A stretch of DNA of 63,697 nucleotides, filler included, from 3 parts of 3 records of this genome joined end to end with filler, not necessarily neighbours in it; one strand, 5' to 3'. Positions 3-14,903 are shown, counted from the whole stretch's first letter. A program made the numbers and translations. The notes: generated by a model from the letters alone, not told the origin.

Positions 3-1172
3 TTAGATTATGTAAATCCGCTTTCTGAAAGTGAAAAGCTCGAGGTTGGTTTACAAGCGATCTTGTTCAACACCGATATTGGTTACAGCAGCACCGGACA
101 ATCCTACAACGCAGAAGGCGATCTGGTTCCTACGCCTAACACGCTTTTTGACTACAGCAGAGATATCTATTCGGCATATGTGACCTACGGAAAAAACTAC
201 GATAAGTGGTCGTATCAAGCCGGGGTGCGTGCAGAGCAGGTGAACGTAGCTGCAGATACCAATAGCGTTCGCGCATTTACCAACGACTACTTTGAGTTGT
301 ATCCTTCGGCTTATATAACCTTTAATCCTTCGGAAAAAAATCAGTATCAGGTAAGTTATAGCCGCAGAATTGATCGCCCGGGCGTTGGGCAGGTCAATCC
401 TATTAGAGAATGGAGTTCACCATTAGTAACCGAATACGGAAACGTGAATTTACGTCCGCAATTTACTAATTCGCTAGAAGCCAATTATACACGTTCTCTG
501 GACAAGGGAAGCATCACCGCCGGTGTGTTTTACCGCATCATTGAAGATCAGATCAACCAGGCGGTTTATGTAGATCGCTTCAATCTGGACCGAATGGTTT
601 TGACCAACGATAATTTTGATTCAACCACTGCATATGGTTTTGAAGTAAGTGCCAATTATAAACCTACCGAATGGTGGAGCTTGAATGCAAGTTTTGATCT
701 GTTTAGCCAGACGCAGACCGGTATTTCTGAATCCTTAGATCCGGACATTGAGAATCCAACGGCAGCTGATATTATGCTTACGGAACGTGAGGTGACCAAT
801 TCTATATTTAACACTCGTATTATCAATAATTTTACGGCTACTCAGCGACTTACCTTTACCGCGTTTGCGATGTTTAGAGGTCCTGCGGAAAGTATTCAGT
901 TTAGAAACAAGTCGATGTTTATGACCAATGTAGGTGCGCGTTATAGCATTTTTGACGGCAAAGGGACCATCAGTTTAAACTACAATGACATTTTTAATAC
1001 GATGAAAGCGCGCTTCACGGCAGTGAGTCCGTATCGCGTAGAGGGTCAGTTCAACTGGGAAAGCAACACGGTATACGTAGGATTTAACTATCGTTTTGGA
1101 GATAGTAAGTTCAGAGCGAAGAAACGCAAAAACCGTGATGACAATGAAAAAGACGGCGGTGGATTATTTTAA
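3..1172 (+). CDS. TonB-dependent receptor / outer-membrane beta-barrel protein, 5'-truncated by the window edge
   Basis: Frame open from position 3 (LDYVNPLSE...). Amphipathic beta-strands, SYSRRIDRP and GNVNLRPQFT motifs, and a C-terminal GFNYRFG typical of Bacteroidota TonB-type barrels. Confidence 0.85.
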   Translation, partial: LDYVNPLSESEKLEVGLQAILFNTDIGYSSTGQSYNAEGDLVPTPNTLFDYSRDIYSAYVTYGKNYDKWSYQAGVRAEQVNVAADTNSVRAFTNDYFELYPSAYITFNPSEKNQYQVSYSRRIDRPGVGQVNPIREWSSPLVTEYGNVNLRPQFTNSLEANYTRSLDKGSITAGVFYRIIEDQINQAVYVDRFNLDRMVLTNDNFDSTTAYGFEVSANYKPTEWWSLNASFDLFSQTQTGISESLDPDIENPTAADIMLTEREVTNSIFNTRIINNFTATQRLTFTAFAMFRGPAESIQFRNKSMFMTNVGARYSIFDGKGTISLNYNDIFNTMKARFTAVSPYRVEGQFNWESNTVYVGFNYRFGDSKFRAKKRKNRDDNEKDGGGLF

Positions 1173-1311
1173 CATAATTTTAATTTTTTTATTATAATTG
1201 TAATAGAATTGAATATTTGGTAACATATAATCAATCAACCTATTAAAACATACGGTTATTGTTTATTAGAGTTAGCCTTCTACAGACGAATAACCAATTA
1301 ATGGGTAAAAA

Positions 1312-1339
1312 AAAACCCGGAGCGCCTGCTCCGGGTTTT
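1312..1339. terminator. Bidirectional intrinsic terminator
   Basis: AAAACCCGGAGC-GCCT-GCTCCGGGTTTT hairpin between convergent genes. Confidence 0.8.
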
Positions 1340-1362
1340 CAATTTTAAAAATAGATTGCTTT

Positions 1363-1755
1363 TTATATTTTCTCCAGCAAGTTTTCGGCTTCTATAGCGC
1401 CGTGGGAAGTGTGATAAGTAACCGTCCCATTTTTGATCAATAACAATTGCGGACTCTCGTGCTGTACGTTGAATTTTGTTGCAATTGCATTACTGATGTC
1501 GCGATGCGCTTTAAGATCCAGAAAATAAGGCTCTAGTTGCTTTTTGTCGTAATTATATGCTTTCTCAAAACTACGTAGAACCATTCTACTGATTCCGCAG
1601 GTGGTACTATGCTTAAAGATTAGCACCGGCACCGCATTAGAAATCTCTACAATTTCATCAAGCTGTTCCATACGCTCGAGTGGGATCCAGTTCATTTCCT
1701 TTATCTCTTCCTTCGCAATATCACGCTGACTTTTAAACATATCAAAAAGTCCCAT
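1363..1755 (-). CDS. ytxJ: Monothiol thioredoxin-like protein YtxJ (DUF2847 family)
   Basis: FKHSTTCGIS and VQHESPQ motifs. Confidence 0.85.
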   Translation of the reverse strand: MGLFDMFKSQRDIAKEEIKEMNWIPLERMEQLDEIVEISNAVPVLIFKHSTTCGISRMVLRSFEKAYNYDKKQLEPYFLDLKAHRDISNAIATKFNVQHESPQLLLIKNGTVTYHTSHGAIEAENLLEKI

Positions 1756-1915
1756 AGTCTTTTCTTTTTAAAGTTTGTTAACGCTTGTAATTCCTAAGCG
1801 GTTGTAAATTTAAGGAAACTAAACCGGCTATTGTATTAAGAATATCCAAAGCCTTTAACCGACAAAAAGACAGCTAATTCCGCACTACAACTGACTAAAC
1901 GTCGGTTTTAACAAA

Positions 1916-1930
1916 TGGTACAGCAATTGC
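1916..1930 (+). promoter_or_regulatory. Putative sigma54 -24/-12 promoter of clpB
   Basis: TGGTACAGCAATTGC has GG-N10-GC spacing and matches TGGCAC-N5-TTGC with one mismatch; lies 26 nt before the clpB ATG. Confidence 0.6.
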
Positions 1931-1956
1931 CATATCAATATCGAAATACAAACACG

Positions 1957-4560
1957 ATGAACTTTAATAATTTCACCATAAAATCACAAGAAGCCATACA
2001 GCAAGCCCAGGCGCTTGCTCAAGGGTATGGCCATCAGCAAATCGAGAATGAGCATATTTTTAAAGCCATTCTAGAAGTTGATGAGAACGTTACTCCGTTT
2101 CTGCTCCAGAAACTGGATGTGAAAGTAAATCTGTTAAAGCAGATTTTAGAGAGCACGCTTACCAGTTTTCCTAAAGTAAGCGGTGGCGATATTATGCTGT
2201 CTCGTGAAGCCGGTAAAACGGTAACCGAAGCTAGCAACATCGCCAATAAAATGAACGATGAGTATGTTTCGTTAGAGCATTTGATCCTGGCGATCTTTAA
2301 ATCGAGCAGCAAGATCGCACAGATCTTAAAAGATCAGGGCGTTACTGAAAAGCACCTCAAAGCCGCGATTGAAGAATTGCGCAAAGGCGATCGCGTAACT
2401 TCGCAAAGCGCTGAAGAAACCTATAATTCGTTAAGCAAATATGCCAAAAACCTTAATCAACTCGCCCGCGACGGGAAGTTGGACCCGGTGATTGGTCGTG
2501 ATGAAGAAATACGCAGAATTCTGCAAATTCTTTCTCGTAGAACTAAGAACAACCCGATTTTAGTCGGTGAACCCGGTACCGGTAAAACCGCGATCGCCGA
2601 AGGGCTCGCCCACCGAATCATCGACGGCGACGTGCCAGAAAACCTTCAAGAGAAACAGATCTGGGCGCTCGATATGGGAGCCTTGATCGCAGGCGCAAAA
2701 TATAAAGGGGAGTTTGAAGAGCGACTTAAAGCCGTGATCAAAGAAGTAACTACCAGTGCCGGTGATATCGTTCTGTTTATAGACGAGATCCATACCCTTG
2801 TAGGTGCCGGTGGTGGTCAGGGCGCGATGGATGCCGCAAATATTTTAAAGCCTGCTTTGGCTCGTGGCGAATTACGTGCTATTGGTGCCACCACGCTTGA
2901 TGAGTATCAAAAATACTTTGAGCAGGATAAAGCTTTAGAGCGCCGCTTTCAGAAAGTGAGTGTTTTTGAGCCGGATACCGAGTCTGCGATTTCCATCTTA
3001 CGTGGGATCAAAGAAAAGTATGAGACGCATCATAAAGTGCGTATCAAAGACAACGCGATCATTGCAGCGGTAGAGCTTTCGCAACGCTATATCACCAACC
3101 GCTTTTTACCCGATAAGGCGATCGACCTGATGGATGAGGCAGCTTCAAAAATGCGTATGGAGATCAACTCCAAGCCCGAAGAGCTTGATGTACTCGACCG
3201 TAAGATTATGCAACTCGAGATCGAGATCGAGGCCATCAAACGCGAGCAGGATGAGAACAAACTCAAGTCCTTACGCGCTGATCTTGCCAATCTTAAAGAA
3301 GAGCGCAACGAGATCAACGCCAAGTGGAAGAGCGAGAAAGATGTGGTAGATAACATCCAGAACGCCAAGCAGGATATTGAAAACTTTAAGCTGGAAGCCG
3401 AACGTGCCGAGCGCGAAGGCAATTATGGTCTGGTAGCCGAGTTACGCTACGGCAAGATCAAGCAAGCTCAGGAAGAGCTCGAGAAATTGCAGGAGCAACT
3501 GGCCGCACAAGCTGATAACAGCCTTATAAAAGAGGAAGTTACCAGTGAAGACATCGCCGAAGTGGTAGCTAAATGGACGGGAATCCCCGTGACCAAAATG
3601 CTGCAAAGCGAGCGCGAGAAATTGTTACACCTCGAGGGCGAACTGCACAAACGTGTGGTAGGCCAGGAAGAAGCGATCATCGCCGTGAGTGATGCGGTGC
3701 GCAGAAGCCGCGCCGGCCTGCAGGATCAAAAACGACCTATAGGTTCGTTTTTATTCCTCGGGACCACGGGTGTGGGTAAAACCGAACTCGCAAAAGCGCT
3801 GGCAGAATACCTGTTTGACGATGAGAACAACATCACCCGTATAGATATGAGTGAATACCAGGAGCGTCACAGCGTGAGCCGTCTGGTAGGCGCACCTCCG
3901 GGATATGTGGGTTATGATGAAGGCGGGCAGTTGACCGAAGCCGTACGTCGCAAGCCCTACAGTGTGATCTTGCTCGACGAGATCGAGAAAGCGCACCCAG
4001 ACACCTTTAATATCTTGTTACAGGTGCTTGACGAAGGTAGACTTACAGACAACAAAGGCCGCCTGGCAGACTTTAAGAACACCATCATCATTATGACCTC
4101 AAATATGGGAAGTCATATCATACAGGAAAAATTTGAAACCATCAAAGATCCTGAGACCGCGATGGAAGGTGCAAAAACCGAAGTGCTGGGGATGTTGAAA
4201 CAAACTATACGCCCTGAGTTTATAAACCGTATCGACGATATCGTGATGTTTACCCCGCTTACGCGAAAAGACATCGAGCAGGTCGTGAGTTTACAACTCA
4301 AAGGCGTGACCCGTATGCTGGCAAAACAAGGCATCACGCTAGATGCTACGGCCGAAGCAATCAAGTTTTTGGCAGACCGCGGTTTTCAACCGGAGTTTGG
4401 TGCACGTCCTGTAAAACGTACCATACAGAAAGAAGTGTTGAACAAACTGTCTAAAGAGATCTTAGGCGGCAAGGTCACCACAGACAGTATCATTTTACTC
4501 GATGCGTTTGATGACGAACTCGTGTTTCGCAATCAGAGCGATCTGGTAGAGAACGACTGA
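1957..4560 (+). CDS. clpB: ATP-dependent chaperone ClpB
   Basis: Clp-N repeats, two AAA+ modules ([16 protein letters not shown]), coiled-coil middle domain and GAPPGYVGY. Start placed at the ATG at 1957 (MNFNNFT). Confidence 0.97.
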
Positions 4561-4581
4561 AGAGCATTGCTCGTATAAACC

Positions 4582-4613
4582 AAAAGCGACATCGTATTGA
4601 TGTCGCTTTTTTT
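4582..4613 (+). terminator. Intrinsic terminator of clpB
   Basis: AAAAGCGACATC-GTATT-GATGTCGCTTTT followed by more T residues. Confidence 0.85.
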
Positions 4614-4789
4614 ATTTTTTATGCAGAAGCGAAAATGAGCACAATTAGTTAATAAATTATTAATAACAATATTGATTTTATGGTAGTTGTGGGTTTTTAA
4701 TTGGATAGTTTTATAAATGTCATAGTATAAACAATAGCGTTTAAAATAAATTGACACATTATAGACTTTCATTTCTAAATCTAATTATT

Positions 4790-5326
4790 ATGGCAAAATT
4801 AAAACGAAATTTCTTTGTGAGTTATCATCACGAAAATGATCAAAAATACGTAAAGGCTTTGCGGAAGTTTAAGAAGGGTATGGAAGTCGCTGATTATTCT
4901 TTAAAGAAAGATATATCAGAATATAAAGATGATGAGATATATAAGATTATAAGGAACAAGATGCGAGCCTGTTCTGTAACTATTGTACTTATTGGAGAAC
5001 GAACAGGACATAGAAAATGGATCGATTGGGAGTTATGGGCATCATTAAGAGCATATAAAAATACCAGAAACTTTAAAAGGTCATTTAGACCCAAAGGGCT
5101 GCTAGCAATTTATTTACCAACAGCAAGTCACTCTGTACCTGAGAGGCTACAAGCCAACATAGATTCTGGGTATGCAGTATCAATGAGATGGAAAAATATT
5201 GAACGTGATTTTGAAAGCAAAATTAATTATGCAATATGGAAAAGAGACCACGCTAGTCACGAGATAAAAAATAATTTAGAACGCTTCGATAGAAATGCGA
5301 TAAATTTTCTTGGGTTTAAAATATAG
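4790..5326 (+). CDS. ThsB-like TIR-domain protein (MTH538/DUF1863 type)
   Basis: RNFFVSYHHEND ... CSVTIVLIGERTGHRKWIDWEL, with the catalytic-type Glu. ATG at 4790 preferred over TTG at 4751. Confidence 0.85.
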   Translation: MAKLKRNFFVSYHHENDQKYVKALRKFKKGMEVADYSLKKDISEYKDDEIYKIIRNKMRACSVTIVLIGERTGHRKWIDWELWASLRAYKNTRNFKRSFRPKGLLAIYLPTASHSVPERLQANIDSGYAVSMRWKNIERDFESKINYAIWKRDHASHEIKNNLERFDRNAINFLGFKI

Positions 5327-5328
5327 AT

Positions 5329-5877
5329 ATGGCAGGAATTAATAGAGCTCATTCATTAAATGAGAGTAAGGCAAGAATTAATTTATCACTAGGTAAAGAA
5401 TGTGTTTTTATAAGTCATCATAAAAGTGATTTAGATGACTGTATAAAGATAGCAGAGTATCTAATGAGGGCTAACATAGATGTTTATTTAGATGAATATG
5501 ATTATGATTTAAAGGAACAGGTACAGAGACAAAACCCTAAGGGTGTTGTTAAATGTATAAGCAAGGGAATAAATAATAGTACTCATATGTTATGTGTATT
5601 ATCAAGCCAAACTATTTATAGTAAATGGGTGCCTTGGGAATTAGGCTATGGTTATGATAAAACAGATTTAGGAGCAATAACTTTAAAAGGTATAGCTGAA
5701 GCATCTCTTCCGGATTACCTAAAGACAGTTAGACTCGTTAGAGGGACTCAATCTCTAAATCAATATATATCGGATGTTTTAGGATACAGCAAGGACTATC
5801 TTAAAATGTATAACAGAATTGATGAGCATTCAAAGCCATCGCATTTTTTGGATAACGTGTTAGATTGGAAACTTTAA
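5329..5877 (+). CDS. TIR-domain protein (TIR_2-like)
   Basis: CVFISHHKSD ... DVYLDEYD ... STHMLCVLSSQTIYSKWVPWELGYG, with the catalytic-type Glu. Confidence 0.85.
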   Translation: MAGINRAHSLNESKARINLSLGKECVFISHHKSDLDDCIKIAEYLMRANIDVYLDEYDYDLKEQVQRQNPKGVVKCISKGINNSTHMLCVLSSQTIYSKWVPWELGYGYDKTDLGAITLKGIAEASLPDYLKTVRLVRGTQSLNQYISDVLGYSKDYLKMYNRIDEHSKPSHFLDNVLDWKL

Positions 5878-5890
5878 ATTAATAAAAATT

Positions 5891-6676
5891 ATGAGTAAAG
5901 AATATTTAATATCAAAATTGTCTTTCAGAAATGATGAGCAATTAATAGACTCTGTAAAGATTGGATTGGTTTCTGGAAATTCTGTTGGGTCATTTGAAAC
6001 AAAGGATAGAAACTGGTTAGTTGATCAGTATAATAGTGGTCATACAATTGGAGGTATATACAAAAAACTTGATGGCACATGGTACAGAAAAGATAGTTTT
6101 AGAGTTGAGGACGGTTACTTTAAATGGGGCTATCTATTCCCTAAAAATATTTCGAAAAGGAATGTTTTTATAAGTTATTACCACAACGACGATCAATTGA
6201 AAAGAAAGCAATTCGATAATCTTTTTGGTGATTTGATTATAAATCAATCAGTAATGTTAGATGAAATTAATGGTGAGAATAGTGACGATTATATTCATAG
6301 GTTAATCAATGAGGGTTATATGAAAGACACTACGGTTCTTACAGTTTTATTGGGACCCAATACTAAGTGTAGAAAACACGTAGACTGGGAAATTGGCGGG
6401 GCTCTTAATGTGAAAGTTGGTGACAGATATGCGGGACTTTTAGGCATAAGGCTTCCATCTCACCCAGATTATGGTTTAGGCACAGATTTCAATCCAGATT
6501 ATTATCCAATAAGATTCGCAGCCAATTTAGAAAGTGGATACGCTGTTCTCGCTGATTGGTCTGAAGATAGAAAAGCTATGCAAGATTTGATCGAACTAGC
6601 ATTTTCAAGACGAAAAGAAATTGATAAAATTAAAAATGCTAGTATTCAAAGACTAGCAGAAAACTCTTGCGAATGA
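5891..6676 (+). CDS. Extra N-terminal domain (DUF3892-like?) fused to a ThsB-like TIR
   Basis: About 85-aa beta-rich N-terminus, then RNVFISYYHNDD ... TTVLTVLLGPNTKCRKHVDWEI; paralogous to 4790-5326. Confidence 0.8.
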   Translation: MSKEYLISKLSFRNDEQLIDSVKIGLVSGNSVGSFETKDRNWLVDQYNSGHTIGGIYKKLDGTWYRKDSFRVEDGYFKWGYLFPKNISKRNVFISYYHNDDQLKRKQFDNLFGDLIINQSVMLDEINGENSDDYIHRLINEGYMKDTTVLTVLLGPNTKCRKHVDWEIGGALNVKVGDRYAGLLGIRLPSHPDYGLGTDFNPDYYPIRFAANLESGYAVLADWSEDRKAMQDLIELAFSRRKEIDKIKNASIQRLAENSCE

Positions 6677-7851
6677 AAAATTTTAAAAGCCCATTATCGA
6701 TATATGTCTTATGGCATCCCGAGTTCAAAGAAGGTACAAGTTATGCTGAAAGTATTTACAATACTTTTAGTGGTGTAAACGGTAATGTAACTCATGCGAA
6801 ATATGATATACCTGTACATTACAGAACACTACCTTTTAAAAATGAAATATTTGCCAAAATACCATTTTCTGAGTCTAAAAGGAATGCTTTAGTTATTTTG
6901 ATAGATGAATATATGTTTAATGATTTTAATTGGACTCAGGCTATAGATGACCTTTTAAAATCAAAGCCATCAAATGCTCGTATTTATCCTGTTTCTTTTA
7001 GCAATTATGCCTTTGATTTAAACCCTGAACATTTAACACCAACTCAATTTATAAGGACTAATCAAAAAGATCCCATTACCGGTAATGAAATAGAAGTTAA
7101 TGATAGAATTATCAAATATAGATTGTTAGAAAGTATTGCTAAGCTTTTATTTAATGTAAAGGATAATTATGATTCTCAAAAAGATAGCGACCCTCCAATA
7201 AGGCTTTTTATCTCCCACGCTAAACAGGATGGAGAAGTTTTAGCTATGAATTTTAGAGATTATATATACAGTAAAACAAAACTGAAGGCATTTTTTGATG
7301 CCAACGATATAGCAGATGGTCATCAGTTTGAGCGGGAAATCAAAAAACATATAGATCATTCAGCATTTGTATTATTTAATACGGATGAATATGCAAATAG
7401 AGAATGGTGTAGAAAAGAAATTATTATTGCTAAGAGGTATAGATGTCCCATCATTGGCGTTATGGATATAAAAAAAGGAGAACAACGAAGTTTTCCCTAT
7501 AGTGGTAATTTCCCTACAATAATCTGGAACGATAATTTTGAGGAAATTATTAATTTGATTTTATCCCAAATCATAAGTGATAAATACAATGAACTTTATT
7601 TAAAATCTATAGTTCAAATGTACGAACTAGAGAACCGTTATTGTTGTTTAGTACTTCCAAAGGCTCCTGAATTATTCAATTATATTGATATAGAAAATTT
7701 TAAAAACGAGGAGAAGGATATGAATTCCCTTATAGTATTATATCCGGATCCTCCTATAGGAATTGAAGAAGTTAGTTTACTAAATGACGTAGACAGGGAA
7801 ATCAAATTTATAACCCCTTTATTATTGCCAACATACATTTCAGAACTATGA
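6673..7851 (+). CDS. Multidomain TIR protein: degenerate TIR-like N-terminal domain, intact TIR, and C-terminal YPDPP domain
   Basis: N-terminal LSIYVLWHP; central RLFISHAKQDG ... FFDANDIADG ... YANREWCRKEI; C-terminal LIVLYPDPPIGIEE. ATGA overlap with the upstream gene. Confidence 0.8.
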   Translation: MKNFKSPLSIYVLWHPEFKEGTSYAESIYNTFSGVNGNVTHAKYDIPVHYRTLPFKNEIFAKIPFSESKRNALVILIDEYMFNDFNWTQAIDDLLKSKPSNARIYPVSFSNYAFDLNPEHLTPTQFIRTNQKDPITGNEIEVNDRIIKYRLLESIAKLLFNVKDNYDSQKDSDPPIRLFISHAKQDGEVLAMNFRDYIYSKTKLKAFFDANDIADGHQFEREIKKHIDHSAFVLFNTDEYANREWCRKEIIIAKRYRCPIIGVMDIKKGEQRSFPYSGNFPTIIWNDNFEEIINLILSQIISDKYNELYLKSIVQMYELENRYCCLVLPKAPELFNYIDIENFKNEEKDMNSLIVLYPDPPIGIEEVSLLNDVDREIKFITPLLLPTYISEL

Positions 7852-8807
7852 AAAAGGAAAATATAGTAACTAATAAAGATTTAGATAAGTTCGTAGCTGA
7901 AGAAATAAAAGAGAACTCTAATCAAAAAGAAATTAATCTATTAAAAGGTCGAAATATTGCCGTCTCCATTAGTGAAAGTCCTGATATAGAAAATTTAGGT
8001 TTTTCATTAGAACATCAAAAAAATCTAATAACAGAAATAACTAGATTTTTGATAATTCACGGGAGTACCTTGGTTTATGGAGGTGATTTACGGCAAAACG
8101 GATTTACAAGGTTATTTTCAACTCTTGTTCATCAATACAGGCCTAGTAAAGAAATTAATAAGAAGTTTTTTAAAAATTATTTTAGTTTTCCAATTCATTT
8201 AAAACTTTCAAGAACTGATGTCTTAGAATTTAAAAAGAATGGTGTTTTGCCAGTTTTAGTTGACCCACCTGAAGACTTAGAAATAGATGAAGATAAATTT
8301 TACGACCCTGTAGGAAATGACAATCTCTTTATTTGGTCAAAAAGCCTTTCTAAGATGAGACACGAGATGCAAAGTAACACAGACGCTCGAATTTTTACTG
8401 GTGGAAGTATTTCCAATTTTAAAGGTAAATATCCCGGTTTATTAGAGGAGTCTTTACTTGCTCTAGAAAGCAATATACCAGTCTATTTTACGGGAATATT
8501 TGGGGGTATAACAATGAAAATAATTGAAGGTCTAGAAGGGAAAAAACCTCAGGAATTAACACTTGAATGGCAATCATCTCAAAATAAAAAATATGAAGAA
8601 TTTGTAAGTTATTATAATTCAAAACAGAGTACAGATCAGATTGATTATGAGCAATGCACTCAATTCTTAAACGCATTTACCTTAGAGCGTTTGAGTCAAA
8701 ATAATGGATTGACAATTGATGAAAATGTAAGACTTTTTAATTCTATACATACGTCGGAAATAATCTTTTTAATTATGAAAGGTCTTCAAAATAAACTATC
8801 AGAATAA
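7848..8807 (+). CDS. Stand-alone SLOG-superfamily protein (SLOG cluster2-like; ThcA-like)
   Basis: IAVSISESPD, LVYGGDLR, SLSKMRHEM, DARIFTGG ... PGLLEE ... PVYFTGIFGG. ATGA overlap with the TIR gene. Confidence 0.8.
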   Translation: MKKENIVTNKDLDKFVAEEIKENSNQKEINLLKGRNIAVSISESPDIENLGFSLEHQKNLITEITRFLIIHGSTLVYGGDLRQNGFTRLFSTLVHQYRPSKEINKKFFKNYFSFPIHLKLSRTDVLEFKKNGVLPVLVDPPEDLEIDEDKFYDPVGNDNLFIWSKSLSKMRHEMQSNTDARIFTGGSISNFKGKYPGLLEESLLALESNIPVYFTGIFGGITMKIIEGLEGKKPQELTLEWQSSQNKKYEEFVSYYNSKQSTDQIDYEQCTQFLNAFTLERLSQNNGLTIDENVRLFNSIHTSEIIFLIMKGLQNKLSE

Positions 8808-9005
8808 TATGATCAAATAGAATATTTATAGTGCTGTTTATCCCAATGCATATAGTGCTGTATCACCCGGTAAAATCAAGTCTTAATTTTCATTACACCT
8901 ACCCCAAAAAACCCACCACCTTCAGGGTCATTTCCTGTAAAAAATAAGAGCGATTTCCTTTTTAAAAAGGGTCAACCGCTCTGATAATGTGACGTATAGC
9001 CTGGC

Positions 9006-9013
9006 TAAGTTTG
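9006..9013 (+). promoter_or_regulatory. Bacteroidota sigmaA -7 element
   Basis: TAAGTTTG (TAnnTTTG) about 30 nt before the ATG at 9043. Confidence 0.55.
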
Positions 9014-9042
9014 TATTAAACGAATCCAAAAAAACTTAAGTT

Positions 9043-9297
9043 ATGCCACATTATGCACAAGGAACTTCAGGATGGACTAAATTAAACGGCTATCAGGCGC
9101 TTTGGGATCCTAAGATCGATCTGGGTAAATTCTATTTTACCACCTTTCAAGGGAAACGCGAAGAAACGCCGTATATGACCGCAGAAAATTTTGCCCGCGT
9201 CATCGACATTCTTAGAAATGAAACGCCGGTTTATGGTAACGCCAGCACCGGCTCGGTCACCACTCAAGCCGAAGAAGTGGGGGAAGAAGAAAGTTAG
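9043..9297 (+). CDS. Small hypothetical protein (84 aa)
   Basis: ATG with an A-rich upstream region, its own promoter element and terminator; C-terminal IDILRNETPVY...EEVGEEES. Confidence 0.7.
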   Translation: MPHYAQGTSGWTKLNGYQALWDPKIDLGKFYFTTFQGKREETPYMTAENFARVIDILRNETPVYGNASTGSVTTQAEEVGEEES

Positions 9298-9344
9298 TCT
9301 TCATAGAATATATAGAGAATTGCTAACAACCAACCAAAACGCAG

Positions 9345-9379
9345 CAACGCCTATATCTTATGATGTAGGCGTTGTTTTT
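9345..9379 (+). terminator. Intrinsic terminator
   Basis: CAACGCCTATATC-TTAT-GATGTAGGCGTTG then TTTTT. Confidence 0.7.
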
Positions 9380-9451
9380 GTTACCGCACTACCTCTCCCA
9401 ATGCCTATAAAATTACCTCAGGTCGAATAAGCTTCAACCAATTGATGCGGA

Positions 9452-9473
9452 TTTGGTGTATATTTACATCAAA
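9452..9473. promoter_or_regulatory. Putative toxin-antitoxin autoregulatory operator
   Basis: TTTGGTGTA-TATT-TACATCAAA, a 9-bp inverted repeat with one mismatch directly before the antitoxin ATG. Confidence 0.55.
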
Positions 9474-9482
9474 CATAATCTT

Positions 9483-9719
9483 ATGGCACGTCAAAGTATT
9501 TCCTTTACAAAACCCAATGATGATTGGTTAAAAGAACAGGTAGACTCTCAAGAATATACCAGTAAAAGTGAACTGATCAATGATCTTGTTAGACAAGCCC
9601 GCAAACAGCAAGCTGAGATAGACTGGATACGCACTAAACTCGACGACGCCGAACAAAACGGCTTTACAAGCGAAAGCAAACAAGAAATTTTAGCTCAGGC
9701 CAAGTCTTCTTTAAAATGA
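9483..9719 (+). CDS. ParD-like ribbon-helix-helix antitoxin
   Basis: MARQSISFT ... EYTSKSELINDLVRQAR; overlaps the toxin start (ATGA). Confidence 0.85.
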   Translation: MARQSISFTKPNDDWLKEQVDSQEYTSKSELINDLVRQARKQQAEIDWIRTKLDDAEQNGFTSESKQEILAQAKSSLK

Positions 9720-10000
9720 ATTACCGGCTTAGCAATACCGCTAAAGAAGATTTAATTCGCATTTACAAATACGGCGTTTACAAATTTGGTAGTGCTCAGG
9801 CTGAGCAGTATTTTGGGAACTTCTTTCTCTATTTTGATCGCATTGCAGAAAATCCATATGCTTTTGAAGCAGTTGATTTTATTAAAAAAGGATACAGACG
9901 TCGCGTTTGCGAAGTAGATAGTATTTATTACAGAATCAATAAAAATACGGTGGAGATTATGACCATCATTGGCAGGCAGGATACTCAAACTAAAATCTAA
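9716..10000 (+). CDS. ParE/RelE-family toxin
   Basis: YRLSNTAKEDLIRIYKYG..KFG..QAEQY ... GYRR ... IYYRI ... VEIMTII. Confidence 0.88.
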   Translation: MNYRLSNTAKEDLIRIYKYGVYKFGSAQAEQYFGNFFLYFDRIAENPYAFEAVDFIKKGYRRRVCEVDSIYYRINKNTVEIMTIIGRQDTQTKI

Positions 10001-12710: not shown

Positions 12711-14903
12711 TTATCCTAAAATAGCTGTTTCTTGCTCCAAGATCATATACGGCTGACGGTAATAGCGCTTGCTCGTCGCTTTATACAAAGCACTAGCCAG
12801 AGCTCCTGCAACCGGTGGCAAACCGGGTTCGCCCAATCCCGTAGGTGCGATTTCGTTTTCTGCGAAAAATACTTCGATCTGTAACGGAGCTTCGTTGTTT
12901 CTGATCAATCGGTAGCGGTCAAAATTCTGTTGTTCGGGCGCCCCGTCTTTAAAGGTTAACTGGCTGTACATCGCGTGTCCTAGTCCGTCTACAATTCCAC
13001 CTTCAATTTGATTTAAAGCGCCTTCTTTATTGACTACAATTCCGCAGTCAACCGCACACCACACTTTTTGCACTACCGGATTTCCGCGATCATCCATCAC
13101 CAGATCGATCACCTGTGCCACATACGAATTGTGACAATAATACGCCGAAACACCACGGTAAACCCCGTCGATCTCGGTTCCCCAATTACTCTTTTCGCGC
13201 ACAAGTTTTAAAACTCCGGCATAACGCTCGGCATCATAATCGTTACGCTCACCAACCGGATTGGCGATCGCATTCTCAAAAAGTTCTAATCTAAAATCAA
13301 TAGGATCTTTACCTGCAGCTTCGGCCACCTCATCGATAAACGATTGCTCTGCTCCTGCGGTAAAATTAGAACGCGGCGCACGCCAGGCTCCTGTTGAAAT
13401 ATTAGTGTCAATACCAAAATTCTCAGCACGATAATTGGCTAGTGTTCCTGCCGGATAACGATCTGCAAACACCGGACTTGATGGAATACCACTCCCTTGC
13501 ACTTCAAAAGCAGTCAGGTTTTTATTGGCATCTAGCGCAGCTTTATATTTTAATGTGTACGAAGGACGATAGGTTCCCTGCGTCATATCATCTTCCCGGG
13601 TGTAAATGAGTTTTACCGGAGCTCCTATTTTTAGCGAAATGGCAGCAGCCTCAAGACCGAAGTTTCCATATAATCTGCGACCAAAACCGCCTCCCATACG
13701 TGTCATATCTACGTGAATGTTATCTTCAGGAATATTGAGCATTGCAGCAGCCGAACCGCGTAAAGCTTCCGGAGTTTGAATAGGCCCGATCAAGCGCGCC
13801 GAATCTGCTTTGACATCGGCAAAAAAGTTCATCGGCTCTAACGTATTATGCGCTAAAAACGACCCGAAATACGTGCGTTCGATCACGGTATCCGCATTGG
13901 CAAAAGCTGCATCAGGATCGCCGTCTTGACGCGCTACTTCTCCCTTTCCTGTAGAAAATACTGAGGCAAATTGCTCTAAATGCGCAGCGGTACTTTCCGC
14001 AGTTGCTTCGGTTTCCCATTCGGCATGTACAGCTTTTTTAGCCTGCATCACCTGCCAGGTGCTTTCTCCTACGACTACGATGAGTTCGTTAAACGCATTC
14101 ACGTCTGCCCAACTTGGGTTTTGTAATGAAGTATCTACGGTAAATACGTCTTTGATTCCCGGCATCGCTTTCGCTTCGCTAGCATCAAAACTTTTAAGTT
14201 TCATTCCAAAAGCGGGTGCGTGAATGAGCATGGCAATCGCTGCGCCCTCTTCCATATAATCTAATCCAAATAAAGGTTTTCCTGTAGCGATCTTAACACC
14301 GTCTACGTTTTTTACCGCAGTCCCAATAAGTTTAAAATCTTTAGGAGCTTTCAGCGGAACTTCTTCCGGTATTTCAATTTTTGAAGCCTCATCAATCAGT
14401 TCTTTGTACGCAATAGTTTTATTGGTAGGTAAATGCTTAACCATTCCTTCTTCGGTCACCAGATCTTCCGCAGGAATATTCCACAGTTTTGCAGCTGCAT
14501 TCACGAATAAATACCGCGCAGTAGCGCCTGCCATACGCAAGCCGTCCCAACCGGCACGAATAGACTGACTTCCTCCTGCGATCTGACGACTGAACTTTTT
14601 AGTATCCAGAGGTGCTTGCTCTACCGTTACCTGATCCCAGGCTACGTCTAATTCTTCGGCCACAATTAGGGGCATTGAGGTTTTTACGTTCTGACCGATT
14701 TCAGGATTGGGTGAAAAAATAGTCACCGTGCCATTCCCATTTATGCGTATGTAAGCATTGAGGTCAAACGCAATATCTTCTGGTTGCACATCGCTTTGAG
14801 CTAAGCCCGAAAACCAACTAAATTGCAAAAGCAGTCCCGCGCCGCCGGCAGCAGAAACTTTTAAAAACGATCTACGGTTGTGTTTTGTCTTTATAAGTGC
14901 CAT
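12711..14903 (-). CDS. Xanthine dehydrogenase-family molybdopterin-binding subunit (isoquinoline 1-oxidoreductase beta-like)
   Basis: Tat-like RRSFLK, EIGQNVKT, GGSQS, MGGGFGRR, GAWRAP and GLGEPGLPP motifs. Confidence 0.9.
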   Translation of the reverse strand: MALIKTKHNRRSFLKVSAAGGAGLLLQFSWFSGLAQSDVQPEDIAFDLNAYIRINGNGTVTIFSPNPEIGQNVKTSMPLIVAEELDVAWDQVTVEQAPLDTKKFSRQIAGGSQSIRAGWDGLRMAGATARYLFVNAAAKLWNIPAEDLVTEEGMVKHLPTNKTIAYKELIDEASKIEIPEEVPLKAPKDFKLIGTAVKNVDGVKIATGKPLFGLDYMEEGAAIAMLIHAPAFGMKLKSFDASEAKAMPGIKDVFTVDTSLQNPSWADVNAFNELIVVVGESTWQVMQAKKAVHAEWETEATAESTAAHLEQFASVFSTGKGEVARQDGDPDAAFANADTVIERTYFGSFLAHNTLEPMNFFADVKADSARLIGPIQTPEALRGSAAAMLNIPEDNIHVDMTRMGGGFGRRLYGNFGLEAAAISLKIGAPVKLIYTREDDMTQGTYRPSYTLKYKAALDANKNLTAFEVQGSGIPSSPVFADRYPAGTLANYRAENFGIDTNISTGAWRAPRSNFTAGAEQSFIDEVAEAAGKDPIDFRLELFENAIANPVGERNDYDAERYAGVLKLVREKSNWGTEIDGVYRGVSAYYCHNSYVAQVIDLVMDDRGNPVVQKVWCAVDCGIVVNKEGALNQIEGGIVDGLGHAMYSQLTFKDGAPEQQNFDRYRLIRNNEAPLQIEVFFAENEIAPTGLGEPGLPPVAGALASALYKATSKRYYRQPYMILEQETAILG

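Follow-up and report, generated by a model that had tools for sequence, protein, structure and literature searches.

The window analysed here is a 63,697-nucleotide (nt) stretch of DNA, three parts of three records of one genome joined with filler. At 4790-8807 it carries a cassette of five intact, tightly packed open reading frames (ORFs) on the + strand, namely four TIR genes (T1 to T4) followed by a stand-alone SLOG gene (Table 1). The question that this locus raises is which of the five proteins, if any, is the effector. An earlier note made from the DNA alone (the sequence-only reading) had described the operon as lacking a canonical Thoeris effector and had proposed that several sensor TIRs feed one SLOG receptor. 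The "no effector" part of that description is probably wrong, as many relatives encode T4 and SLOG as a single polypeptide. On this view the four sensor TIRs would become three small TIRs and one effector TIR. What stands of the proposed scheme is the combination of TIR and SLOG genes and their defence context; what probably changes is the division of labor among the TIRs.

The relatives of the SLOG protein carry the main evidence. Its family comprises 2,781 representatives at 50% identity (E ≤ 1e-3), 938 of which match at E ≤ 1e-30. Among the best 150 of the 2,781, 69 are full-length fusions of T4 and SLOG, 13 are partial fusions in which T4 without its N-terminal domain is joined to SLOG, 65 are stand-alone (some of them fragments), and three have other N-terminal extensions. 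In 89/92 of the longer SLOG homologues retrieved by a word-index search, the only partner domain that Pfam recognises is a TIR. Aligned longer homologues are collinear with T4 plus SLOG in all 14 that were sampled, and 10 of these 14 keep the REWCRxE motif of T4. The proteins P0103, P0104, and P0106 join T4 residues ~159-385 to SLOG residues ~31-317 (BLASTP E 6e-36 to 2e-59); these shorter fusions begin at the T4 TIR domain (query starts 159-173). In related loci T4 is always directly upstream of SLOG, and this adjacency is kept in three distant ones. L039 encodes T4 without the N-terminal domain and SLOG, directly upstream of hsdR. L041 encodes a T4-SLOG fusion preceded by a T1/T3-like and a T2-like TIR, and L040 has T4 and SLOG amid MazG_C, HMUDK-like, and Nmad2 genes and a ThsB-type TIR. 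On the strength of these arrangements, T4 and SLOG are one predicted functional unit, accompanied by small TIRs that vary in number. Because both are fused in a large share of relatives, the T4-SLOG pair looks like a split TIR-SLOG receptor-effector, analogous to the SIR2-SLOG protein ThsA.

The sequence-only reading had assigned the last gene to a SLOG fold, and this assignment holds. The protein matches Pfam LD_cluster2 (PF18163) at 6.5e-77 and 259.1 bits (threshold 25.3) over model positions 2-264 of 264. Its AlphaFold2 model has a predicted local distance difference test (pLDDT) score of 90. The top Foldseek matches of the model are the BcThsA SLOG with 3′ cyclic ADP-ribose (3′cADPR; E 4e-4), DprA, and TRPM2. 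TRPM2 binds, and is gated by, ADP-ribose (ADPR). Structures of the LOG family appear lower in the list (1rcu and 2a33, E about 0.008-0.015). Three residues, R171, G197, and E201, are invariant in 18/18 sequences. In a profile alignment to 7uxs_B, which is marginal (E 0.09), they pair with chain positions 91, 119, and 123, i.e., BcThsA R371, G399, and E403, residues described as contacting 3′cADPR (bioRxiv 10.1101/2022.05.07.491051). The general annotation tools pass over the protein: PADLOC v2 has no model for SLOG and labels only the TIR genes of the cassette, and the NCBIfam models name none of the five proteins and in no case reach SLOG. We also observed a related domain in another setting. 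At L042 (6203-8421, G108) a 540-aa (amino acid) protein with a weak SLOG cluster2-like domain and a patatin phospholipase adjoins the gene for a 184-aa ThsB-type TIR. This is a candidate Thoeris-like pair with a predicted lipase effector, in the classic sensor-effector layout.

All four TIR proteins retain the catalytic-type Glu that had been noticed in the translations, within the motifs WIDWE (T1), WVPWE (T2), HVDWE (T3), and WCRKE (T4). The residue is invariant among orthologues of T1 (10/10, W[IV]D[WSA]E), T2 (10/10, WVP[WF]E), T3 (10/10, H[VI]DWE), and T4 (11/11, REWCRxE), and the T4 motif aligns with WC..E of plant TIR structures. PADLOC labels T1-T3 chiefly as ThsB (T1 down to 1e-11, T2 3e-14). 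The best PADLOC match of T4 is the candidate model PDC-S66, and one ThsB model matches it at 3.2e-07. The nearest solved proteins to T1 are putative cADPR synthases/ThsB (9vyl, 9b7d, 6lhy). The closest of them, PDB 9vyl, is a 243-aa "putative cyclic ADP-D-ribose synthase TIR1" whose motif W-I-P-W-E-I-S-Y-S-L recurs in the ThsB_TIR proteins encoded at the bona fide type III Thoeris loci examined; 9vyl may be the structure of a type III Thoeris TIR. The N-terminal domain of T3 is missing from the L010 orthologue (181 aa). The AlphaFold2 model of T4 (pLDDT 82) has three alpha/beta domains, and a whole-chain Foldseek search with it returned only generic tandem alpha/beta proteins (TM 0.2-0.27). 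Comparison by hhalign of the T4 N- and C-terminal domains with T1-T3, the T4 TIR, SLOG, and ThcB4 detected no similarity. Leads in the ESM Atlas connect the N-terminal part of T4 with TIR-annotated clusters at 0.90 (142-162 shared features), and the C-terminal part reaches ≤0.86.

A scan for related loci, with one genome per species and the closer SLOG alignment as the query, returned 10 loci. T1-T2-T3-T4-SLOG are all present in the same order in nine of them, at 39-88% protein identity, and thus the five-gene cluster is more than a chance neighborhood. None of the genes that flank the cassette in the window is present at those nine loci. L009, the remaining locus, is a contig of 6.1 kb from Ignavibacteria with T4, SLOG, and one ThsB-type TIR. 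At half of the 10 loci (L001, L002, L003, L008, and L010) the cassette sits within a type I restriction operon, with hsdS on one side and hsdR on the other; the gene order is hsdM-hsdS-[cassette]-hsdR-ygjP, the last being the gene for a YgjP-like metallopeptidase. Only one of 23 same-genus genomes (G009) has the cassette, with 84% DNA identity and at another site; G009 and L001 are probably the same assembly. PF18163 was found in 5/401 sampled Bacteroidota genomes. When viral contigs were scanned with the SLOG alignment, none of the 66 pattern matches proved to be a relative. Judging from its distribution and surroundings, the cassette is predicted to be horizontally mobile, with a strong defence-island context, in Bacteroidota.

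Other arrangements at these loci deserve mention. Directly upstream of hsdS, at 626-3710, L001 encodes a 513-aa CD-NTase-like protein (SMODS + AGS_C) and a 428-aa nuclease of the PLD family. L033, one of the bona fide type III Thoeris loci, borders hsdR too, as does the L039 pair. The repeated placement between hsdS and hsdR may reflect co-mobility or functional coupling. A known parallel is the prr restriction-modification (R-M) locus, which contains prrC; this gene encodes an anticodon nuclease, PrrC, that is functionally coupled to type I restriction. In two different lineages (L009 287-5873 and L040 5270-10395) genes for MazG/MazG_C, HMUDK_hel (5-hmdU DNA kinase-like), and Nmad2 are interspersed among those of a T4-SLOG pair and a ThsB-type TIR, and L009 alone has a dCTP-deaminase-like gene besides these. 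MazG, HMUDK, Nmad2, and dCTP-deaminase-type families are familiar from the hypermodification of phage DNA and from nucleotide depletion. The arrangement of L009 and L040 may represent a second, larger variant of the system. Two more TIR proteins are encoded at L040 (G093), on the - strand at 3866-5119 and 13246-14664, and one of them (472 aa) combines SIR2_2 with TIR_2.

How might the five proteins work together? Our preferred reading, which we rate as somewhat better than an even bet, is a Thoeris-like anti-phage cassette. T1, T2, and T3 would be ThsB-like sensors that, on infection, convert NAD+ to an ADP-ribose-derived signal. SLOG would bind this signal in a ThsA-like pocket. SLOG and T4 would form a two-subunit receptor-effector, in which ligand binding drives SLOG-T4 assembly and so switches on the T4 TIR as an NAD+-consuming enzyme (NADase). 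NAD+ would then be depleted by T4 and the infection aborted. The scheme is built on the gene fusions, the adjacency of the genes, the fold of SLOG, and the analogy with the SIR2-SLOG protein ThsA.

Several points weigh against this scheme. A complex prediction for T4(160-392) and SLOG, in which alignments were not used, scored 0.16 vs. a mark of 0.34, which gives no verdict on binding; that T4 binds SLOG is suggested by fusion and adjacency only. The N- and C-terminal domains of T4 are without a recognisable family by Foldseek and hhalign. At L039 no small TIR was detected nearby, so the pair may not need further TIRs to make a signal, or the ligand may come from T4 itself. The distant L009 and L040 add the nucleotide-enzyme genes described above, which means that other effectors may act downstream in some variants. 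The sequence match of SLOG to the ThsA SLOG is the marginal one given above, and BcThsA K388 has no equivalent in the SLOG alignment. In other clades SLOG domains are N-glycosidases, and some immune SLOGs have been proposed by Aravind's group to process ADPR derivatives, as stated in PMC9503650. SLOG might itself be the enzyme and effector, a LOG-like N-glycosidase that either breaks down nucleotides or turns what the TIRs produce into an active or toxic compound; all four TIRs would then be sensors and synthases acting upstream. The LOG structures among the fold matches and the invariant motif P196-G197-x-x-E200-E201 are consistent with an enzyme of this kind. Nevertheless, we consider it unlikely. 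Both fold and sequence match the non-catalytic ThsA SLOG better than LOG enzymes, and relatives fuse SLOG to enzymes (TIR, patatin), as is usual for regulatory sensor domains. The spacing from G to E is four residues, as in ThsA G399-E403, and differs from that of the LOG motif PGGxGTxxE.

The missing small TIRs of L039 would also suit a system with no diffusible messenger. The TIRs would then be direct sensor-NADases that assemble on phage cues, and SLOG a brake or threshold-setter that binds or removes basal ADPR-type products and so keeps T4 off before infection. TIRs are reported as NAD+-depleting effectors in several non-Thoeris systems (bioRxiv 10.64898/2025.12.03.692087), and the tight translational coupling of T4 and SLOG resembles that of a toxin-regulator pair. 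However, three ThsB-type TIR genes with intact Glu are kept in 9/10 loci at 44-88% identity, which is hard to explain without signalling, and it would be unusual for T4 to be fused permanently to a domain that only inhibits it. We regard a brake of this kind as quite unlikely. It is very improbable that the cassette has no role in defence and is, e.g., a housekeeping operon for nucleotides or NAD or a regulatory operon. SLOG and TIR folds do occur outside immunity, but such a role fits poorly with the patchy distribution among same-genus and other Bacteroidota genomes, the low GC content relative to the flanks, the repeated embedding in type I R-M operons with other defence genes adjoining, and the position in a cargo-swapping hotspot (see below).

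The relation to type III Thoeris needs a closer look, since the sequence-only reading had drawn this parallel. Multi-TIR + SLOG systems have been published as type III Thoeris and validated as defence in Pseudomonas. Type III is described as multiple TIR proteins and a SLOG effector with uncharacterised signalling (bioRxiv 10.64898/2025.12.03.692087). Its components are given as the SLOG protein ThcA and the ThcB TIRs, the effector having been renamed ThsD (van den Berg et al., Cell Host Microbe 2024, via bioRxiv 10.64898/2025.12.03.692087 and PMC13276650), and its SLOG is said to be of the SMF/DprA kind, distinct from STALD (PMC13276650). The architectural part of the parallel is real: like type III, the cassette combines several TIR genes (four) with a single SLOG gene that stands alone, further effector domains being absent, and the large TIR lies directly upstream of SLOG, as do ThcB4 and ThcA in G386. 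Membership is not borne out. Against the NCBIfam equivalog cut-offs of 110 bits for ThcA (NF058525) and 220 bits for ThcB4 (NF058526), SLOG gave no match to the ThcA model even at E ≤ 10, and T4 reached 47.3 bits with the ThcB4 model, in a match confined to the TIR part (129-216 of the 375 profile positions). SLOG and the ThcA of G386 are related at the superfamily level only.

Bona fide ThcA/ThcB4 loci occur in 2/401 Bacteroidota genomes. In G386 the order is ThcB4 (404.8 bits), ThcA (206 bits), and a ThsB_TIR protein. In G046 ThcA (248 bits) is followed by two ThsB_TIR proteins, a small TIR_2, and hsdR; the contig ends on the upstream side, which cuts off ThcB4. Read together, the two loci hold two ThsB_TIR proteins, a small TIR_2, a large three-part TIR_2, and a SLOG, which is the make-up of the window cassette. 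Each of the five window proteins has a different best partner in these loci (Table 1). The one-to-one pattern for the three small TIRs alone has a chance of ~2 in 9, and the weight of the pairing therefore lies in the E-values. The differences are nonetheless clear. ThcA of G386 and G046 belongs to PF18180 (SLOG cluster3; 182-190 bits) and is 195-219 aa long, whereas the window SLOG matches cluster2 only and is 319 aa long with its helical bundle. The N- and C-terminal domains of T4 are without detectable similarity to those of ThcB4, and the gene order is different. T4-SLOG fusions, which were looked for in the window family only, are frequent there. By these comparisons of sequence and gene content, the cassette is best classed as a sister variant of type III Thoeris, not as a member of it.

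In comparison with Thoeris in the broad sense, in which TIRs make a signal that activates an effector, the TIRs of the cassette have intact catalytic Glu residues, with T4 aligning with the plant TIR WC..E and T1 with ThsB-type structures. On the effector side a sensor-type SLOG fold is present, and the fusions suggest that the T4 TIR is the killing domain. Type I Thoeris shares with the cassette the ThsB-type TIR proteins (PF08937, PADLOC ThsB models), a SLOG fold nearest to that of BcThsA with 3′cADPR and with the conserved equivalents of R371, G399, and E403, and, in the fused relatives, an NADase-type domain joined to SLOG. Unlike type I, with its SIR2-SLOG protein ThsA, the five proteins and the scanned neighbors include no SIR2, the predicted NADase partner is a TIR domain on a separate polypeptide, there are four TIR genes, and the window SLOG falls in cluster2, not STALD. 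TIR-SAVED effectors of the cyclic oligonucleotide-based antiphage signaling system (CBASS) are a working analogy only, in that a nucleotide-sensor domain is joined to a TIR NADase. These effectors were reportedly found by Hogrel et al. (in Nature, 2022) to form ligand-induced filaments that activate the TIR NADase. Unlike in CBASS, the sensor of the cassette is SLOG rather than SAVED, the signal would come from TIRs and not from a CD-NTase, and assembly is only proposed.

TIR-SLOG conflict systems are themselves not a new idea. Burroughs et al. are said to have predicted them by comparative genomics (in NAR, 2015), and the window SLOG belongs to the family covered by the Pfam model "SLOG cluster2" (PF18163). 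"TIR-SLOG-based antiviral systems" are also referred to in PMC9503650. The five-gene architecture, the R-M embedding, and the split or fused relation of T4 and SLOG are documented in the present analysis. A literature search on TIR-SLOG and type III Thoeris found no description of the family; van den Berg 2024, Burroughs 2015, and supplementary tables were outside its scope, and Table S1 of Yirmiya 2025 may list the configuration. The window family is a sizeable variant of its own, apparently uncharacterised.

In the window, the cassette lies downstream of clpB (1915-4560, TIGR03346, 1293 bits). The layout reported from the sequence, five co-oriented genes with gaps of 2-13 nt or ATGA overlaps in AT-rich DNA after the clpB terminator, agrees with the coordinates, the GC content (0.28-0.35 in the cassette vs. 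0.44-0.54 in clpB), and the hairpin. T1 and T2 are separated by 2 nt and T2 and T3 by 13 nt, and there are 4-nt overlaps between T3 and T4 (ATGA) and between T4 and SLOG. The longest frame of T4 starts from TTG at 6667; the ATG at 6673 is favoured because 392-aa homologues predominate among the matches. The nearest genome, G001, aligns with window positions 3600-4620 and 8899-9382 and has 1.3 kb of other DNA in between, which encodes a 305-aa ORF with a weak, sub-threshold RES-like match. At the same clpB-downstream site G023 has a 469-aa KAP-family NTPase and G005 an 863-aa TIR-STAND protein. Since same-genus genomes carry other DNA at this site, the cassette fills a cargo-swapping hotspot, which looks like one for defence cargo. 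No direct or inverted repeats were found flanking the island and no tRNA genes were found in the window. A sigma-70 promoter scan, with a consensus that may be unsuited to Bacteroidota, was at background (29 found vs. 24 expected). Among the neighbors scanned there are no SIR2, Macro, caspase, or membrane genes, as had been said. What the sequence-only reading observed was confirmed throughout.

Table 1. Features of the five-gene cassette and its insertion site in the window, with the best partner of each protein in type III Thoeris loci.
Feature	Position	Strand	Description	Best type III partner
clpB terminator-like hairpin	4582-4610	+	Terminator scan; left edge of variable island	
Island	4621-8898		DNA that G001, the nearest same-genus genome, lacks at this position	
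T1	4790-5326	+	178 aa, ThsB-type TIR; PF08937 (ThsB_TIR) 8e-19; predicted phage sensor and signal synthase	G046 TIR232 (hhalign 95%)
T2	5329-5877	+	182 aa, small TIR_2-type; PF13676 1.7e-10; predicted sensor and signal synthase	G046 TIR194 (hhalign 97%, E 1e-10; BLASTP 9e-10)
T3	5891-6676	+	261 aa; N-terminal domain 1-90, no recognised family; ThsB-type TIR 93-191, PF08937 1.6e-15; predicted sensor and signal synthase	G046 TIR191 (hhalign 64%)
T4	6673-7851	+	392 aa; N-terminal alpha/beta, TIR_2 181-263 (PF13676 6.6e-11), C-terminal alpha/beta; predicted NADase effector subunit	ThcB4 (TIR domain only, E 6e-5)
SLOG	7848-8807	+	319 aa; core ~34-230, C-terminal helical bundle 239-317; PF18163; predicted receptor of NAD-derived signal	ThcA of G386 (hhalign 90.7%, E 1.2e-6; only 13% vs. 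G046 ThcA)

Downstream of the cassette are an 84-aa ORF, a ParD/ParE pair, and a TonB-dependent receptor gene. The 84-aa ORF (9043-9297) has no family match, and its G001 copy differs by one residue; a strong terminator-like hairpin lies 3′ of it (9343-9376). The pair at 9453-10000 consists of a ParD-like antitoxin of 88 aa (PF03693, sub-threshold at E 0.0019) and a ParE toxin of 94 aa (PF05016, 7.8e-11), with a 4-nt overlap. It is also found at the homologous place in G001, with 92% DNA identity, where an IS200-like Y1 transposase gene lies between the 84-aa ORF and ParDE.

We can tentatively go one step further, to a possibility that we would place well short of even, and suggest that T4-SLOG is a previously unrecognised class of TIR-SLOG receptor-effector, which would read a TIR-made signal distinct from 3′cADPR and amplify it via its own TIR; the small TIRs would be exchangeable phage sensors, and the cassette would be functionally coupled to type I restriction. 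If ThcB4-ThcA followed the same logic, the effector step of type III Thoeris would be accounted for. Type III has been validated for defence, how it signals and kills is described as uncharacterised, and the fusion of SLOG and TIR in a sister family offers a natural clue. The question of the effector becomes a direct one: does the T4 TIR, under the control of SLOG, deplete NAD+? The recurrent position within type I R-M operons may point to a coupling of restriction and abortive infection, and with this family multi-TIR signalling immunity reaches marine Flavobacteriaceae as well as other Bacteroidota.

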